From a phage, in NCBI GenBank assembly GCA_012439925.1, contig GCA_012439925.1_4519.1: a DNA stretch of 64,000 nucleotides; one strand, 5' to 3'. The translations under genes and the position numbers were made by a program. How positions within the stretch are numbered: the first letter of the stretch is position 1; each line of letters starts with the position of its first letter. Of this stretch, positions 1 through 31,660 are shown one piece after another. The notes beneath the pieces were generated by a model, which was not told where the DNA came from, did no database searches, and worked only from the letters and a program-made list of their open reading frames with translations.

Positions 1-2
1 TC

Positions 3-20526: not shown

Positions 20527-20560
20527 GTTTACATCTTCCTCTAGGCATGATATGATGTAC
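20527..20560 (+). promoter_or_regulatory. Early promoter (GTTTACA -35 / TATGAT -10)
   Basis: -35 and -10 hexamers separated by 17 nt upstream of the 20586 ORF. Confidence 0.5.
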
Positions 20561-25513: not shown

Positions 25514-26035
25514 ATGGCGCACTTTAATGAATGTTCACAACTTATTTCTGGTGTTGATAAAGCAGAAGAAGCTTATTTTAATGCTCTGATTCACGAAGAT
25601 AAAGACCCACTGCAGGTAATGCTTGATATGCAGAAATCTTTACAGGTTCGTCTGGCAAATGACAAGCCTGAACATAACAAACATCCTGATGAATTGGCTA
25701 CTGCTGGTGATGTTGTTGATTGGCTGCGTAATCAGAAAGATTATATTGATGATGAATTCCGTGAACTGTTGACTTCACTTGGTGGTATGAGCAATGGTGA
25801 AAAAGCCGCCAGCAGTGTATGGAAGCCTTGGAAAGCACAACATGCAGAATATCGAAATCGTCGTATCGATGAACTGTCTCCTGAAGACCAGCTTGAAATT
25901 AAATTTGAGATGATTGATATTCTTCATTTCGTTCTGAATATGTTCCAGGGTCTTGGTCTTACAGCAGAAGAAATCTTTAAACTTTACTACTTGAAAAACC
26001 AACACAACTTTGAACGTCAGGATAATGGTTACTAA
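25514..26035 (+). CDS. 56: dCTP pyrophosphatase gp56 (MazG-like)
   Basis: MAHFNEC ... DPLQVMLDMQ ... EIKFE ... FHFVLNMF matches remembered T4 gp56; start moved to the ATG at 25514. Confidence 0.8.
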   Translation: MAHFNECSQLISGVDKAEEAYFNALIHEDKDPLQVMLDMQKSLQVRLANDKPEHNKHPDELATAGDVVDWLRNQKDYIDDEFRELLTSLGGMSNGEKAASSVWKPWKAQHAEYRNRRIDELSPEDQLEIKFEMIDILHFVLNMFQGLGLTAEEIFKLYYLKNQHNFERQDNGY

Positions 26036-26041
26036 TTAAGT

Positions 26042-26049
26042 TATAAATA
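26042..26049 (+). promoter_or_regulatory. Late promoter TATAAATA
   Basis: Exact T4 late-promoter consensus about 30 nt upstream of the soc ATG. Confidence 0.6.
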
Positions 26050-26080
26050 CACCTGTAATTAAACAACAAAGGAGTTAATT

Positions 26081-26317
26081 ATGGGTGGTTATGTAAACAT
26101 CAAAACCTTTACGCATCCTGCTGGTGAAGGCAAAGAAGTTAAAGGTATGGAAGTTTCTGTTCCGTTTGAGATTTATTCAAACGAACATCGGATTGCAGAT
26201 TCTCATTATCAGACTTTCCCGTCCGAAAAAGCTGCTTACACTACTGTGGTGACTGACGCAGCAGATTGGCGTACTAAGAACGCTGCAATGTTTACCCCTA
26301 CACCAGTAAGTGGTTAA
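26081..26317 (+). CDS. soc: Small outer capsid protein Soc
   Basis: GYVNIKTF ... AHYQTFPSEKAAY matches remembered T4/RB69 Soc; 78 aa; preceded by a late promoter. Confidence 0.7.
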   Translation: MGGYVNIKTFTHPAGEGKEVKGMEVSVPFEIYSNEHRIADSHYQTFPSEKAAYTTVVTDAADWRTKNAAMFTPTPVSG

Positions 26318-26326
26318 ATAATTTAA

Positions 26327-26350
26327 GGAATCCTTCGGGATTCCTTTTTT
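26327..26350 (+). terminator. Terminator GGAATCC-TTCG-GGATTCC + T6
   Basis: Perfect hairpin followed by TTTTTT. Confidence 0.7.
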
Positions 26351-26360
26351 CGTTTCTAGA

Positions 26361-26395
26361 GTTTACATCCACTAAAAACTATGTTAAGATATTCT
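26361..26395 (+). promoter_or_regulatory. Early promoter
   Basis: GTTTACA, 17 nt, TAAGAT. Confidence 0.4.
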
Positions 26396-26418
26396 TACTT
26401 ACTCAAGAGGAGAACATT

Positions 26419-26646
26419 ATGTTAAATCGTTGGATTAAACCTAATAACACATTAGGCGCTTTGATTGCACAAGAAGTTTCGCTGAAATACGGTCTTGGAT
26501 ATTATGATGACGTAGTCGTACACTCATTCATGATGGATGGTGAAGACGTCAAATTTAATGCCGAAATCCATTGGGATGATGGCGGTGTTCGTTTTGTTCG
26601 AGGAACAATTAATGCTTACGATGCTGAAGAAGTTATTTGTTGTTAA
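26419..26646 (+). CDS. Hypothetical protein
   Basis: ATG with AGAGGAG SD. Confidence 0.45.
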   Translation: MLNRWIKPNNTLGALIAQEVSLKYGLGYYDDVVVHSFMMDGEDVKFNAEIHWDDGGVRFVRGTINAYDAEEVICC

Positions 26647-26659
26647 ACCAGGCGAAGGT

Positions 26660-26848
26660 ATGATGCCTATTCCTGATACACATGAAAAAAGTTGGGAATA
26701 TATTGGTGACGGCATGATGGAAGAAGTTATTCGTCCTAAGTCTGCTTCAAACTCTTCAAGTTATAATCATTCTTACGTATCATCCTGGTCTGGAGATTCT
26801 GGTTCAAGTTATTCCGATTGTAGTTCGGACTCTGGGAGTTGTGATTAG
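26660..26848 (+). CDS. Hypothetical Ser-rich small protein
   Basis: ATG after GAAGG; the longer ORF-track form overlaps the upstream gene. Confidence 0.35.
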   Translation: MMPIPDTHEKSWEYIGDGMMEEVIRPKSASNSSSYNHSYVSSWSGDSGSSYSDCSSDSGSCD

Positions 26849-27026
26849 TGAACAGAATAGTAAAATGGTTTAAAAGCTGGAATGATGGAGTCGGACCAGA
26901 AGATTGGTTAGATGTTCTTGAAGAGAATATGGCTAAAGAATTCCAGAAACATGAAGAAAAGCTCGTCGAAGATGAAGGCGAACGTATTGTAAAACTTTAT
27001 ATGGGTGAACCATCGAGGAAATTATA

Positions 27027-27491
27027 ATGGATGCTATGTTATTTAAAATGTATTTGCTTGAAGCCAAGTCATTTAAACATATACCAGTAGAAGATAAGAC
27101 TCCACTAGAAATAGCTATTCTCATTAACAAAAGTCTAAATAATCCGCAATATATCGTAGAAGAATTCTGCAAATTGCAGATTCCTAAAGGTTACAAAATT
27201 CGTGTAGAGCGAGTTGGAGCTATTACTCGCTCTAAAAATTCTCCGTTTAGTCTTGAAGAAGGCATAAAGGATTTAGGGTACGAATCTACAGAAAATGCTG
27301 TTTATGTGAATCCTGAAAAGCGTTTAGACCTGTTTGAAAAGCGAGACCATACGTATTTTGCAAAAAAATACTTTATTACATCATTAGCAGATTTAATCCA
27401 TTTGCAACGAGCTATTTGGAAATTTTTTAAGACAAAAGGTGTAGCGCTAGAAACATTCTCTGAACCTGCTAGTTTTTATTTAGGTGAATAA
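27027..27491 (+). CDS. Hypothetical protein
   Basis: ATG ORF of 154 aa. Confidence 0.5.
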   Translation: MDAMLFKMYLLEAKSFKHIPVEDKTPLEIAILINKSLNNPQYIVEEFCKLQIPKGYKIRVERVGAITRSKNSPFSLEEGIKDLGYESTENAVYVNPEKRLDLFEKRDHTYFAKKYFITSLADLIHLQRAIWKFFKTKGVALETFSEPASFYLGE

Positions 27492-27492
27492 T

Positions 27493-27672
27493 ATGGACCT
27501 TATGAGTATGTTTGATGAGCCTGAAGTCAAGGCTCCTAAAGTGCATCGTAGTGAACTTGTTGATGAACTAGATAGTATTATACAACGACACGGCTTTAGT
27601 TTACCTGTTGAAGCCCTGAAAGACCTTGCCTCTTATTATGACGACCCTCCACCATGGAGTCCTTGGAAATGA
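27493..27672 (+). CDS. Hypothetical small protein
   Basis: ATG 2 nt after the previous stop (the ORF-track start at 27484 is GTG). Confidence 0.35.
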   Translation: MDLMSMFDEPEVKAPKVHRSELVDELDSIIQRHGFSLPVEALKDLASYYDDPPPWSPWK

Positions 27673-27832
27673 AAGAGAAATTTAAAGAGAAATTCTTACT
27701 AGAAATCAAGGAAAAAGACTTTGAGACATGGTATCGAATGGTGAAAGGGTTAACATTGCTTTTTAAAGCATCGTTATTCATGTTAGAACAACCTGGCCCA
27801 TCAGGGCCTTTAGTAGGAAAGCTTAAAAAGTA

Positions 27833-27870
27833 GTTTACATTCCCTCCTCTCGTGTTATGATAGGCTTATC
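27833..27870 (+). promoter_or_regulatory. Early promoter
   Basis: GTTTACA, 16 nt, TATGAT. Confidence 0.45.
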
Positions 27871-27888
27871 TTTAAATGGAGGTCTATC

Positions 27889-28470
27889 ATGACATGTCAA
27901 TCTGAACTTCAAGAACGCGAATATCTCGCAGCACTAATTGATGATAAATTCACTAAACAAGAACAAAACATTCTCTGGGCTTGCACTGATTATAAGGAAG
28001 ACCCAGATTTCCACTATGAATTAGACCATCTTGTTCGTAAGCATATGACTTCTACAGTACCAGTAGAACTCTACCGTGGTGTAACTCCAGAAGAAGTAGA
28101 ACGTCTTTCCCTTCTTTCTGTTGGATGTCATTGGTCTCCCGGACGAGTAACATCGTTTACAACAGACTTTGGTACGGCCAGACAGTTCTCTGGGAGTTGG
28201 GAATATCAAACGTACACTATTCTTAGTCTCAGGAATGCTCCGTTCATTTTCGATTACTACCAAAACATGGTTAACATTGTACTCGCCGGAAAGAACCCTA
28301 AGCATGTTATGGAAGAAAAACGTGTTGACGTCCTAGATATGATTGAATCTGAACAAGAATACATGGTCTCAGGTATCTCTAGATTTGAGATTGTAGAAAT
28401 TGAAGACTTAGAATATGACCCTTTATCTCGGTTATACAAAATCATTCATTTGAAAATGTTGAATTTTTAG
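27889..28470 (+). CDS. ADP-ribosyltransferase, ModA/ModB family (R-S-EXE)
   Basis: YRG (Arg), TSFTTDFGTARQF (S-T-S-like), EQEYMVSG (Q/E-x-E); 193 aa; tandem with a paralog. Confidence 0.55.
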   Translation: MTCQSELQEREYLAALIDDKFTKQEQNILWACTDYKEDPDFHYELDHLVRKHMTSTVPVELYRGVTPEEVERLSLLSVGCHWSPGRVTSFTTDFGTARQFSGSWEYQTYTILSLRNAPFIFDYYQNMVNIVLAGKNPKHVMEEKRVDVLDMIESEQEYMVSGISRFEIVEIEDLEYDPLSRLYKIIHLKMLNF

Positions 28471-28510
28471 TGTACAAACTCTTCCGATGATGATACTATA
28501 CCTTTATCAA
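28470..28510 (+). promoter_or_regulatory. Early promoter cassette
   Basis: GTGTACA ... TACTATACCTTTATCAA. Confidence 0.4.
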
Positions 28511-28527
28511 CCACAGGAGAAACCTAA

Positions 28528-29136
28528 ATGTTTATGCCGTATAACGAGTGTGAAATTGAAGAAATGGTTCGTCGTGCTCAATGCCCAGATTATCAAGATA
28601 TGCTTCAGTACAAAATCGATGAGCAATTCAGCGACATTGAACAAAGTGTACTATGGCAGTGTATGGAAAACAAGCCAGACTGTATTCAACAGGAGTTAAG
28701 TTCAATCGTTCGTAGAAATTGGACGTCTTCAGTTCCTGAGACAATGTATCGTGGAATCTCTAAGAAAACTATGGCCACACTCGACGATAAAGGCATTGGT
28801 AGTATTATTAAATTTGACAGAGTAATGAGCTTCAGTCCGGTGTTCAGTGTAGCACGTAACTTCGCTTCATATAATTTTTATGGAACATTTAATATGTTCT
28901 GCATCAAAGATGCACCATTTGCTTTCAACTTCCGTGAACATATGCTTAACATGATTCTGGCTGCGCCATCTTGTGAGTTCAATGGAGCTTTCCCTGAAGC
29001 GACAAGACGGTCTAATGCTAGACTTATATCTGACGAATGCGAATTTATGCTCCCTATAGGGACTACACTACGTGTAGATTCTATTATTCAAGATGGACGT
29101 TATACAATCTGGAATCTGTCTATTGTCAGTTACTGA
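28528..29136 (+). CDS. ADP-ribosyltransferase, ModA/ModB family (paralog)
   Basis: YRG, MSFSPVFSVARNF, ECEFMLPIG; 202 aa. Confidence 0.55.
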   Translation: MFMPYNECEIEEMVRRAQCPDYQDMLQYKIDEQFSDIEQSVLWQCMENKPDCIQQELSSIVRRNWTSSVPETMYRGISKKTMATLDDKGIGSIIKFDRVMSFSPVFSVARNFASYNFYGTFNMFCIKDAPFAFNFREHMLNMILAAPSCEFNGAFPEATRRSNARLISDECEFMLPIGTTLRVDSIIQDGRYTIWNLSIVSY

Positions 29137-29210
29137 CTGAATTGGAATAACCGGATGGAACTCAGAACCATTATAACACATAAAAAATTAAAGCATTTTA
29201 TGAAAAAAGA

Positions 29211-29250
29211 GTGTACACTACCTGAGGGCATGATATTATAGACCTATCAG
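29211..29250 (+). promoter_or_regulatory. Early promoter cassette
   Basis: GTGTACA ... TATTATAGACCTATCAG. Confidence 0.4.
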
Positions 29251-29289
29251 CTAAATGACCTTAACGTCCGTAAGACAGAGGAAAATATT

Positions 29290-30036
29290 ATGTTATCAAA
29301 TAATAAAATTAACAAAATCAATCGTCGTCTTGACCACACCAGAGCTTCTGCGAAGAGACGCTCTAAGGATTTTAACTTAGACTTTAATTACCTTAAAAAC
29401 ATTCTTGATCAAAAGGTCTGCGCTTACTCAGGTGAATCTTTCAATAACTCTGTTGAAGGTGAGAAATTATCCTTAGAACGTTTTAATAATGATATAGGCT
29501 ACATTAAAGGTAATGTTATCCCGGTTAAGAAAAAATATAACACTGCTCGTTCTGATTTAACATTAGAAGAACTTATTGGGAAACGCGATGCCATTGCAAG
29601 ACGTATCGCTAATCCTTCTGTCCGTAAAGTAGAGAAACTTAATCTCGACGAGAAGAAATGGGCCCAAATTAAAAAGGTTTATGATACTATTTTAAAAATC
29701 CGAGCAAAACGTGAAAATCGTGTTAAGCATATGGCGAACATGATGAAAAATCAACCTTTATCTAACGAATCTAAACTTAGAATTGTTGCTTTGAAAGCAC
29801 GCATTAATGGCTCACATCAAGCAGAAGGCCATGAACTTACTAAACTCAACGTTCTTCTTAAAGGCTCTGACTGGAAAACTAAAACTAAATTAACTGATGC
29901 TGAATCGCTTTTCGATACATATGATAAAGTTATCCAAGGTTTGCAACGTTTTGAAAAGATTGGTTTCATTGGTAAATTAAAATTGAAACGTGGCTTACCA
30001 CTTAGCGCATCATTATTCCAACTTATTAAAGGTTAA
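29290..30036 (+). CDS. Hypothetical protein (at the position of srd in T4)
   Basis: 248 aa, basic; synteny modA/modB - this gene - dda.1 - dda. Not verified as Srd. Confidence 0.5.
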   Translation: MLSNNKINKINRRLDHTRASAKRRSKDFNLDFNYLKNILDQKVCAYSGESFNNSVEGEKLSLERFNNDIGYIKGNVIPVKKKYNTARSDLTLEELIGKRDAIARRIANPSVRKVEKLNLDEKKWAQIKKVYDTILKIRAKRENRVKHMANMMKNQPLSNESKLRIVALKARINGSHQAEGHELTKLNVLLKGSDWKTKTKLTDAESLFDTYDKVIQGLQRFEKIGFIGKLKLKRGLPLSASLFQLIKG

Positions 30037-30038
30037 TT

Positions 30039-30350
30039 ATGGTTTATGTATATGCAATAGTTTATCGAGATATGGAAGGATTTACTGTCCCGGTTCCACT
30101 TGATGAGCATCGTCCTGCAGTATTTTTTAGAAAGGATATTGCAGATAAAGTTTTCGATACTTTGAAAACACAGTATAAAACAGATTTAAAAATGGGAGTT
30201 CTAAGAATGGTCGAAACTCCGCGTAAGTTCTGGTTTAATAAGCTTGAAATGAAACACGTTAAACTAGATGCGGAGACGCAAAGATTATATCAACGAATCC
30301 TGGACACAGGCCGTATTGTTAGTATTCCAATTGCAGGGACTTTACGATGA
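30039..30350 (+). CDS. Hypothetical protein (dda.1 position)
   Basis: ATG 2 nt after the previous stop; ATGA overlap with dda. Confidence 0.45.
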   Translation: MVYVYAIVYRDMEGFTVPVPLDEHRPAVFFRKDIADKVFDTLKTQYKTDLKMGVLRMVETPRKFWFNKLEMKHVKLDAETQRLYQRILDTGRIVSIPIAGTLR

Positions 30351-31660
30351 CATTTGATGATTTGACCGAAGGCCAGAAAAACGCCTTCAACGTTGTTATG
30401 AAAGCTATTAAAGAAAAGAAACATCACGTAACTATTAATGGGCCTGCCGGTACAGGTAAAACAACCCTTACTAGATTCATCGTTGAAGCCCTTATTTCTT
30501 CTGGAGAATCAGGTATTATTTTAGCAGCCCCTACACACGCTGCTAAAAAGGTTCTAAGCAAACTTGCAGGTCAAGAAGCATCGACTATTCATAGCATTCT
30601 TAAAATCAACCCAACTACATACGAAGAAAACGTGTTATTTGAACAGAAAAAGGTTCCCGACTTAGCCTTGTGTCGTGTACTGTTATTTGATGAAGCGTCA
30701 ATGTGCGACCGTCCTCTGTTTAAAATAATGTTAGCTAGTATCCCTAAATGGTGTACAGTAATTGGAATTGGCGACCGATGTCAGATTCGACCGGTAGACC
30801 CAGGCGAATCCACTGCGTATCTAAGTCCTTTCTTCACACACAAAGACTTCGTGCAATGCAACCTTACAGAAGTTAAACGTAGCAATGCGCCAATTATTGA
30901 TGTTGCGACTGATATTCGTAACGGCAAATGGATTTACGATAAAGTAGTTGATGGGCACGGTGTTCATGGATATACAGACCTTAAATCGTATATGATGAAC
31001 TATTTTAATGTCGTTAAAACTCCTGAAGACCTTTTCGAAAATCGAATGATGGCATTCACAAATAAGTCGGTGGACAAGTTAAATTCAATTATTCGCCGAA
31101 AACTTCTTGAAACAGAAAAACCATTTATTAAAGACGAAGTCATTGTTCTACAAGAGCCGTTTACCAAGACATATAAGCTAGATGGCAAAAATATGACCGA
31201 AATGCTTTTCAATAACGGGCAGTTCGTTCGTATTCGAGACGCTGTAGAAACGTCTACATTCGTTAAAGCACGTGGTGTTTCAGGCGAATATATGATACGA
31301 TACTGGAATCTTACAGTAGAAACATATGGCGATGATGAAGAATACGTCCGCGAAGATATAAAGGTTATTTCTTCTGAAGAAGAGCTTTATAAATTCAATT
31401 TGTTTTTGGCTAAGACCGCAGAAACATACAAATTCTGGAATAAAGGTGGTAAAGCTCCATGGAGCGAATTCTGGGATGCTAAACGTATGTTCACTAAGGT
31501 GAAGGCACTACCAGTATCAACCTTCCATAAGGCCCAGGGTATGTCTGTTGACACGGCCTTTGTTTATACACCGTGTATCCATTATGCCGATTCAGAATTA
31601 GCTAAACAGTTATTGTATGTCGGCACAACTCGTGGCCGGTTTGACGTCCATTTTATTTGA
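30347..31660 (+). CDS. dda: DNA helicase Dda (SF1)
   Basis: Walker A GPAGTGKTT, LLFDEASM Walker B; 437 aa. Confidence 0.85.
   Translation: MTFDDLTEGQKNAFNVVMKAIKEKKHHVTINGPAGTGKTTLTRFIVEALISSGESGIILAAPTHAAKKVLSKLAGQEASTIHSILKINPTTYEENVLFEQKKVPDLALCRVLLFDEASMCDRPLFKIMLASIPKWCTVIGIGDRCQIRPVDPGESTAYLSPFFTHKDFVQCNLTEVKRSNAPIIDVATDIRNGKWIYDKVVDGHGVHGYTDLKSYMMNYFNVVKTPEDLFENRMMAFTNKSVDKLNSIIRRKLLETEKPFIKDEVIVLQEPFTKTYKLDGKNMTEMLFNNGQFVRIRDAVETSTFVKARGVSGEYMIRYWNLTVETYGDDEEYVREDIKVISSEEELYKFNLFLAKTAETYKFWNKGGKAPWSEFWDAKRMFTKVKALPVSTFHKAQGMSVDTAFVYTPCIHYADSELAKQLLYVGTTRGRFDVHFI

Follow-up and report, generated by a model that had tools for sequence, protein, structure and literature searches.

Results

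Two paralogous genes between mrh and srd

The DNA analyzed here (the window, a stretch of 64,000 nucleotides) comes from a Mosigvirus, i.e., an RB69-like T-even phage. Over its segment 27700-29300, the identity to Escherichia phage CCU7 is 98.5%, and 154 phage records, essentially all of them Mosigvirus, match at 90–99%. Two open reading frames lie in tandem on the + strand of this segment, namely ORF1 (27889-28470, 193 aa) and ORF2 (28528-29136, 202 aa), which are separated by 57 bp and which we assign below to the Mod family of ADP-ribosyltransferases, in the modB and modA position, respectively. The two proteins are 32% identical (E 6e-26) and hence paralogs, as had been predicted for the interval 27833-29136 from the letters of the DNA; the first base of that interval is also the first base of the promoter-like site P1 (see below).

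On the upstream side, a Mrh-like gene (27027-27491, PF24070) is followed by two small conserved ORFs before ORF1. On the downstream side, ORF2 is followed by Srd (29290-30036, PHROG 1400), Dda.1 (PF25693) and the Dda helicase. The gene order of the window, mrh – modB – modA – srd – dda.1 – dda, is that of T4 and RB69, and ORF1 and ORF2 thus occupy the genome position of the Mod family (mrh or modA.2 – mod – srd – dda.1 – dda). A tblastn search of the window with 12 Mod proteins as queries found no third, Alt-like paralog. The pair itself is already known: it is annotated as modB and modA in RB69 and in about 150 other Mosigvirus genomes, and with ORF1 and ORF2 being ~95% identical to genes annotated in 2003, the original finding is correct and ordinary. 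The labels modA and modB are, however, used inconsistently for the two genes between database and GenBank records.

A few further observations were made on the reading frames of this region. ORF2 begins with ATG-TTT-ATG, and modA of RB69 is annotated from the second ATG (28534 here), two codons after 28528. The start at 28528 is favoured, because the spacing from the AGGAG at 28515-28519 is 8 nt to the first ATG but 14 nt to the second. Terminator-like matches inside ORF2 (28900 and 29063) are short stems of 6 bp and, with 7 such matches in the region against 2.8±1.7 expected, were put down to chance. Further upstream, two ORFs on the + strand overlap in different frames (26537-26848 and 26419-26646) and match phrog_2031 and phrog_1873. 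The 103-aa ORF of this overlapping pair has a Ser-rich C-terminal tail, SSSYNHSYVSSWSGDSGSSYSDCSSDSGSCD, and its true start is probably internal, since its PHROG match begins at residue 26.

Family, catalytic motifs and predicted fold

Both proteins match PHROG 832, ‘RNA polymerase ADP-ribosylase’ (E 1e-37 for ORF1 and 2e-39 for ORF2). BLASTP against T4 ModB gave E 2e-27 (90 bits) for ORF1 and E 2e-35 (111 bits) for ORF2, and the corresponding values against T4 ModA were E 1e-09 (42 bits) and E 2e-20 (72 bits). Local scans with Pfam-A and NCBIfam returned no matches for either protein. A profile search of a large protein collection retrieved 26 clusters, nearly all from T4-like phages and all with the precomputed assignment PF26816.1. 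Two of these clusters are labelled as Escherichia coli and Enterococcus faecalis ‘hypothetical protein’, and they are probably phage contigs within bacterial assemblies.

The original prediction had quoted, for both proteins, an Arg in a YRG context, an S-x-S/T segment and a Q/E-x-E motif, and had proposed an alignment with T4 ModA and ModB as a check. Indeed, all three are present in both. ORF1 carries LYRGV (R63-G64), VTSFTTDFGTARQF (S89-F-T91) and EQEYMVSG (E155-Q-E157), and ORF2 carries MYRGI (R75-G76), VMSFSPVFSVARNF (S101-F-S103) and ECEFMLPIG (E170-C-E172). The motifs survived in an alignment of 12 Mod proteins of eight genera, taken from eight sources (the window, T4, JS10, VR7, S16, JD18, RB49 and EnC07), where R63-G64, S89 and E155/E157 of ORF1 fall into the same invariant columns as R75-G76, S101 and E170/E172 of ORF2. 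In T4 these columns hold R72/E163/E165 of ModA and R73-G74/E171/E173 of ModB, and a R73A/G74A mutant of T4 ModB is dead for both ADP-ribosylation and RNAylation (PMC10468400). The catalytic Arg of the Y-R-G motif lies in a predicted strand (beta-1) in both ORFs, the S-x-S/T motif, with its invariant first Ser, on beta-2, and the E-x-E motif, with both Glu invariant, at the start of beta-5.

The folds predicted for ORF1 and ORF2 are confident and match C3, VIP2, Vis, Tre1 and HopU1, as expected for ADP-ribosyltransferases. A profile search of the PDB gave weak matches to XopAI and Vis (E 0.09-0.3), and sequence searches of the PDB found no solved Mod or Alt structure. Hits of the single sequences to ArdA, nucleophosmin and Cas9 in the PDB (E >= 0.02) were discarded as noise. 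A ‘Mod family’ has already been recognised within the RSE clade in a published survey (PMC9503650). The PHROG and BLASTP matches, the gene order and the predicted folds support the assignment of ORF1 and ORF2 to the T-even Mod family of R-S-ExE ADP-ribosyltransferases, in agreement with the ModA/ModB-like nature first proposed for them.

Early promoter-like sequences

The early promoters of T4 are strong promoters with UP, -35, TGn and -10 elements (PMC2988021), and T4 ModA and ModB are early proteins (PMC9697503). From three local sites we derived the motif G?T[TG]TAC[AT]-N12-15-TGnTAnnnT, which occurs at 17 distinct sites on the + strand of the window and at none on the − strand, with <1 expected. 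The sites start at 20527, 20961, 21738, 22479, 26361, 27833, 28470, 29211, 33890, 34470, 43096, 43515, 43608, 46180, 46769, 48678 and 62884, precede ORFs, and have the downstream consensus ...CCTATCAAC in common. Downstream of many of the sites there is a AGACCTATCAAC-like sequence. From this distribution, the window as a whole has the look of a single region of early transcription.

Three of these sites flank or separate the genes discussed here, and all three fit the T4 type of early promoter in their -35, TGn and TAnnnT elements, spacing, orientation on the coding strand and intergenic placement. P1, the candidate promoter of ORF1 (27833-27861, +), reads GTTTACA (-35)-N13-TGtTATGAT with a predicted start near 27868; a generic sigma-70 scan scored it at 10/12 with TG. 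Equivalent sites precede T4 modB and the homologs of six other genera; they were noted in RB69, JS10, S16, JD18 and EnC07. P2, the candidate promoter of ORF2 (28470-28499, +), reads GTGTACA (-35)-N14-TGaTACTAT with a predicted start near 28506. Its -35 element overlaps the last base of the ORF1 stop codon, and the Shine-Dalgarno (SD) sequence of ORF2 is the AGGAG mentioned above. P2 was missed by the generic scan because it matches only 8/12 sigma-70 hexamer positions, but it shares with the other early sites the extended -10 TG and the downstream consensus ...CTATCAAC. RB69 and AlbertHofmann have the identical sequence, JS10 has the site with a better -35, and the VR7 form is degenerate (CGt instead of TGn). 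By genus, P2 occurs in Mosigvirus and Dhakavirus and, in degenerate form, in Gaprivervirus; it is missing from T4, where modB and modA overlap by ATGA. Of 155 records, 139 are at least 95% identical across the ORF1-ORF2 junction. The sequence therefore speaks for an early promoter of each gene's own, as originally claimed, although more weakly so for ORF2.

P3, the candidate srd promoter (29211-29239, +; GTGTACA, TGa, TATTAT), has equivalents in T4, JS10 and RB69. The srd 5' leader also contains an 11-mer, CGTCCGTAAGA, at 29265-29275 (+), about 15-25 nt 5' of the start codon, which is identical in T4, RB69, AlbertHofmann, JS10, VR7, JD18 and BovinicusUrsus amid divergent flanks (L001:3299-3309(-), L002:4566-4576, L003:3818-3828, L004:3182-3192, L006:3085-3095, L009:2511-2521(-) and L014:1057-1067 in our set of loci). 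Possible readings are a small stem-loop (GUC-CGUAA-GAC) and a site for a protein or an RNase.

A conserved hairpin in the leader of the first mod gene

The leader of ORF1 folds into a hairpin of 16 pairs at 27851-27896 (+), with an RNA minimum free energy of -22.5 kcal/mol (z -6.9). Its 5' arm is the TGn/-10 region of P1, and its 3' arm contains the SD sequence GGAGG (27878-27882) and the ATG (27889-27891) of ORF1, so that a stable helix covers both signals for translation initiation. In contrast, RNA from the predicted start at ~27868 is unstructured (-3 kcal/mol). Of the window's 15 early-promoter leaders that are followed by an ORF, only this one has a strong hairpin; the others range from -1 to -11.5 kcal/mol with z above -1.6, and the leaders of ORF2 and srd are without significant structure (z +0.1 and -0.65). 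A search of 26000-30500 against Rfam gave no matches.

The same hairpin is found upstream of the first or only mod gene in T4 (modB), JS10, VR7, S16, JD18, EnC07 and RB49, with folds of -14 to -26 kcal/mol and z of -3.2 to -8.0. Further examples are CkP1, PhiKpNIH-6, Vettismorki and IT22 and, in a weaker form, BovinicusUrsus, which brings the free energies across the other phages overall to -9 to -26 kcal/mol. The hairpins lie at L001:4620-4672(-), L003:2424-2476, L004:1810-1862, L005:2370-2422, L006:2310-2362, L008:2370-2422 and L007:2457-2509, and in L010-L013. RNAalifold returned an empty structure for a 12-sequence leader alignment in which MAFFT had put the helices out of register, and conservation was taken from an alignment of 8 sequences and from single-sequence folds. 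Of the 14 pairs predicted from this alignment of eight genera, 7 have changed in both partners; pairing holds in 91% of cells, as compared with 38-49% when the partners are slid, and none of the shuffles reached the observed covariation. The hairpin and its compensatory changes extend over T4 and 11 other Straboviridae phages from about 10 genera.

An early-promoter-like site lies upstream at 26361-26390, and there are no terminator-like sites on the + strand between it and ORF1, so that read-through RNA over ORF1 is to be expected. Since the -10 hexamer of P1 is located within the 5' arm, the proximal transcript would start inside the helix and escape it, which implies that the longer transcripts would go untranslated. 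Judging from the sequence, ORF1 is probably untranslatable on read-through transcripts and translated only from mRNA initiated at P1. An earlier description of a modB leader hairpin was not found in the literature searched, which did not extend to the primary ModA and ModB papers.

Which paralog corresponds to ModA and which to ModB

In T4, ModA completes the modification of RNA polymerase alpha, at Arg265 of both subunits, whereas ModB acts on ribosomal protein S1, EF-Tu and trigger factor and is also able to attach NAD-capped RNA (‘RNAylation’). Going by position, the upstream ORF1 is the counterpart of T4 modB, and ORF2, which adjoins srd, is that of T4 modA, with identities to these positional counterparts of 31% and 29%, respectively. 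By raw BLASTP similarity, however, both ORFs are closer to T4 ModB than to T4 ModA, and the T4 targets are thus not confidently transferable. In a neighbour-joining (NJ) tree, ORF1 clusters with JS10's upstream copy (100), and the downstream copies of JS10 and VR7 form a group with ORF2 (100). The links of these groups to T4 ModA and ModB have low support, as has their joining to the single-copy genes of S16, JD18, EnC07 and RB49, and the bootstrap labels of the deep nodes are unreliable after rerooting.

Hidden Markov models (HMMs) were built without T4 from the downstream-copy, upstream-copy and single-copy sets. T4 ModA scored 87 bits with the downstream-copy model, 60 bits with the upstream-copy model (33 bits without VR7) and 86 bits with the single-copy model, and T4 ModB scored 118, 115 and 166 bits, respectively. 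Three features of the alignment are common to the ORF2 group and T4 ModA, namely NKPD with a shortened loop, FP[DE], and D-E-x-E. The HMM scores and these signatures point, with moderate confidence, to ORF2 as the ModA ortholog, and ORF1 is taken as the ModB counterpart mainly by position. Given the poorly supported T4 links in the tree, the assignment of targets leans on position and on the 27-bit difference between the HMM scores, and as orthology to T4 ModA and ModB is only partly resolved, the caution attached to the original prediction, namely that the targets may differ from those in T4, was a fair one.

The number of mod genes varies between genera. In many Straboviridae genera there is only one mod gene, lying between srd and either modA.2 or mrh (L005 from S16, L006 from JD18, L007 from RB49, L008 from EnC07, and L010-L014), and the tandem pair was seen only in Tequatrovirus, Mosigvirus, Dhakavirus and Gaprivervirus. 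In PhiKpNIH-6 a dmd gene is inserted between mod and srd, and the mod homolog of IT22 looks split into ORFs of 447 and 132 nt.

Discussion

We consider it highly probable (roughly 90%) that ORF1 and ORF2 are the arginine mono-ADP-ribosyltransferases of the ModB and ModA position, expressed early from P1 and P2, with translation of ORF1 gated by the leader hairpin. The observations behind this reading are homology, motifs, predicted fold, synteny, promoter-like sequences and the conservation of the hairpin; from them we infer the enzymatic activity, the targets, the transcription start sites and the translational gate. Both proteins would be small, single-domain, arginine-specific enzymes of the R-S-ExE clade, in which the Arg on beta-1 and the S-x-S/T on beta-2 are expected to hold NAD+ and the E-x-E at the start of beta-5 to catalyse the transfer of ADP-ribose to arginines of host proteins. 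Position and shared signatures suggest that ORF2 does the job of ModA and ORF1 that of ModB. Both would be expressed immediately after infection from predicted sigma-70 early promoters (UP / -35 / TGn / -10), ORF1 from P1, and ORF2 from P1 read-through as well as from its own, weaker P2. The hairpin would silence translation of ORF1 on transcripts that start further upstream, thereby tying ORF1 synthesis to the activity of P1.

The division of labour between the two proteins may not be that of T4. Both proteins might be ModB-like, acting on the translation apparatus and possibly RNAylating, or they might have swapped or new targets, neither being a dedicated modifier of Arg265 of RNA polymerase alpha. 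Such a non-T4 split would fit the higher scores of both ORFs against T4 ModB (90 and 111 bits, as opposed to 42 and 72 bits against T4 ModA), the low identity to the positional counterparts in T4 (31% for ORF1, 29% for ORF2), the poorly supported deep nodes of the tree, and the single-copy genera (S16, JD18, EnC07, RB49), which limit the two-gene arrangement to some lineages. The low ModA scores, however, can also be explained by T4 ModA being a long branch, and T4 ModA scores better with the downstream-copy than with the upstream-copy HMM, shares NKPD with the shorter loop, FP[DE] and D-E-x-E with the ORF2 group, and like ORF2 has the conserved position adjoining srd. We regard a split unlike that of T4 as rather unlikely. 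That one of the paralogs is a catalytically inactive pseudo-enzyme acting by binding seems, on the other hand, very improbable. Nothing specific points in this direction apart from the E-C-E of ORF2 in place of E-Q-E and the missing P-x-G in ORF1, which most homologs have after ExE; the middle residue of ExE varies among active ADP-ribosyltransferases of the R-S-E clade, both proteins retain all four catalytic positions, which do not vary across the family, and both models are confidently predicted to have the ADP-ribosyltransferase fold.

A different question is whether P2 functions at all. If the intergenic likeness were incidental, ORF2 would depend entirely on a bicistronic transcript from P1, as in T4, which manages without P2 with its modB and modA overlapping by ATGA; the match to just 8/12 sigma-70 hexamer positions, at which the consensus scan passed over the site, and the VR7 site without TG would agree with this. 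We nevertheless find a non-functional P2 unlikely, and a little more so than the non-T4 split, as the site conforms to a motif with 17 occurrences on the coding strand and none on the other (<1 expected), possesses the extended -10 TG and the CTATCAAC-type downstream consensus, and has been kept in RB69 and JS10 despite ~60% protein identity of the flanking genes.

As a discovery the gene pair amounts to little, modB and modA being annotated in RB69 and many Mosigvirus genomes and the family being biochemically characterised in T4. The T4 names should nevertheless not be transferred blindly, since sequence by itself is silent on which paralog acts on RNA polymerase and which on the translation apparatus or in attaching RNA, and the naming has gained relevance with the current exploitation of ModB-type RNAylation. 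The conserved hairpin between promoter and SD sequence would offer a simple explanation of how expression of a toxic early enzyme is restricted to the opening minutes of infection: if the gate is true, a toxic ModB-type enzyme would be translatable only from its own early promoter, and its synthesis would stop once early promoters are shut off. That the -10/SD-AUG hairpin is an undescribed, family-wide translational gate and, separately, that the targets of the Mosigvirus paralogs differ from those of T4 ModA and ModB, are tentative proposals to which we give odds well below even. Further effort might pay off only for the leader hairpin and the partly resolved ModA/ModB orthology.

The closest known system is RB69, the type species of Mosigvirus (NC_004928), with the same gene order, matching intergenic spacing and an identical P2. 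Its P1, hairpin and P3 are near-identical to those of the window (1-2 differences in the stretch considered), and its ModB (NP_861709) and ModA (NP_861708) differ from ORF1 and ORF2 by a few substitutions, with identities of 95.3% and 96%, respectively. T4 ModB (AAD42602) resembles ORF1 in being the upstream gene, in its R-S-ExE motif, with R73/G74 aligned to R63/G64, in its early promoter and in the same -10/SD leader hairpin, but it is only 31-36% identical and has a longer insert before ExE (KYTYEDTDGLDSE). T4 ModA (AAD42601) resembles ORF2 as the downstream gene adjoining srd, in NKPD, FP[DE] and D-E-x-E, and in its better HMM score with the ORF2 group, although the identity is 29-33% and ORF2 scores higher against T4 ModB and has a promoter-like site of its own. 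In T4, modB overlaps modA by 4 bases without a promoter between them, whereas the window genes are separated with P2 in between, and separated mod genes with an internal promoter are common to the RB69-, JS10- and VR7-like phages. Identity to the arginine-specific toxins and effectors of the R-S-E type (C3, iota/CDTa, VIP2, Certhrax, Vis, Tre1, HopU1 and ART2.2) is 10-19%. Unlike these, ORF1 and ORF2 lack a delivery or binding domain; they are early, cytoplasmic phage enzymes with a helical extension at the N terminus.

For the proposed gate, the best precedent is found in T4 itself. Leader hairpins of the T4 genes e, soc, 49 and I-TevI hide the SD sequence and AUG on long transcripts, and a proximal promoter that starts inside the hairpin gives a short transcript that is open (PMC3014915). 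The list of SD-sequestering hairpins in that review does not include modB. Two features would set the ORF1 leader apart from these T4 genes, namely that the block is relieved by an early promoter here and by a late promoter there, and that here the -10 hexamer of the relieving promoter itself forms the 5' arm of the hairpin.
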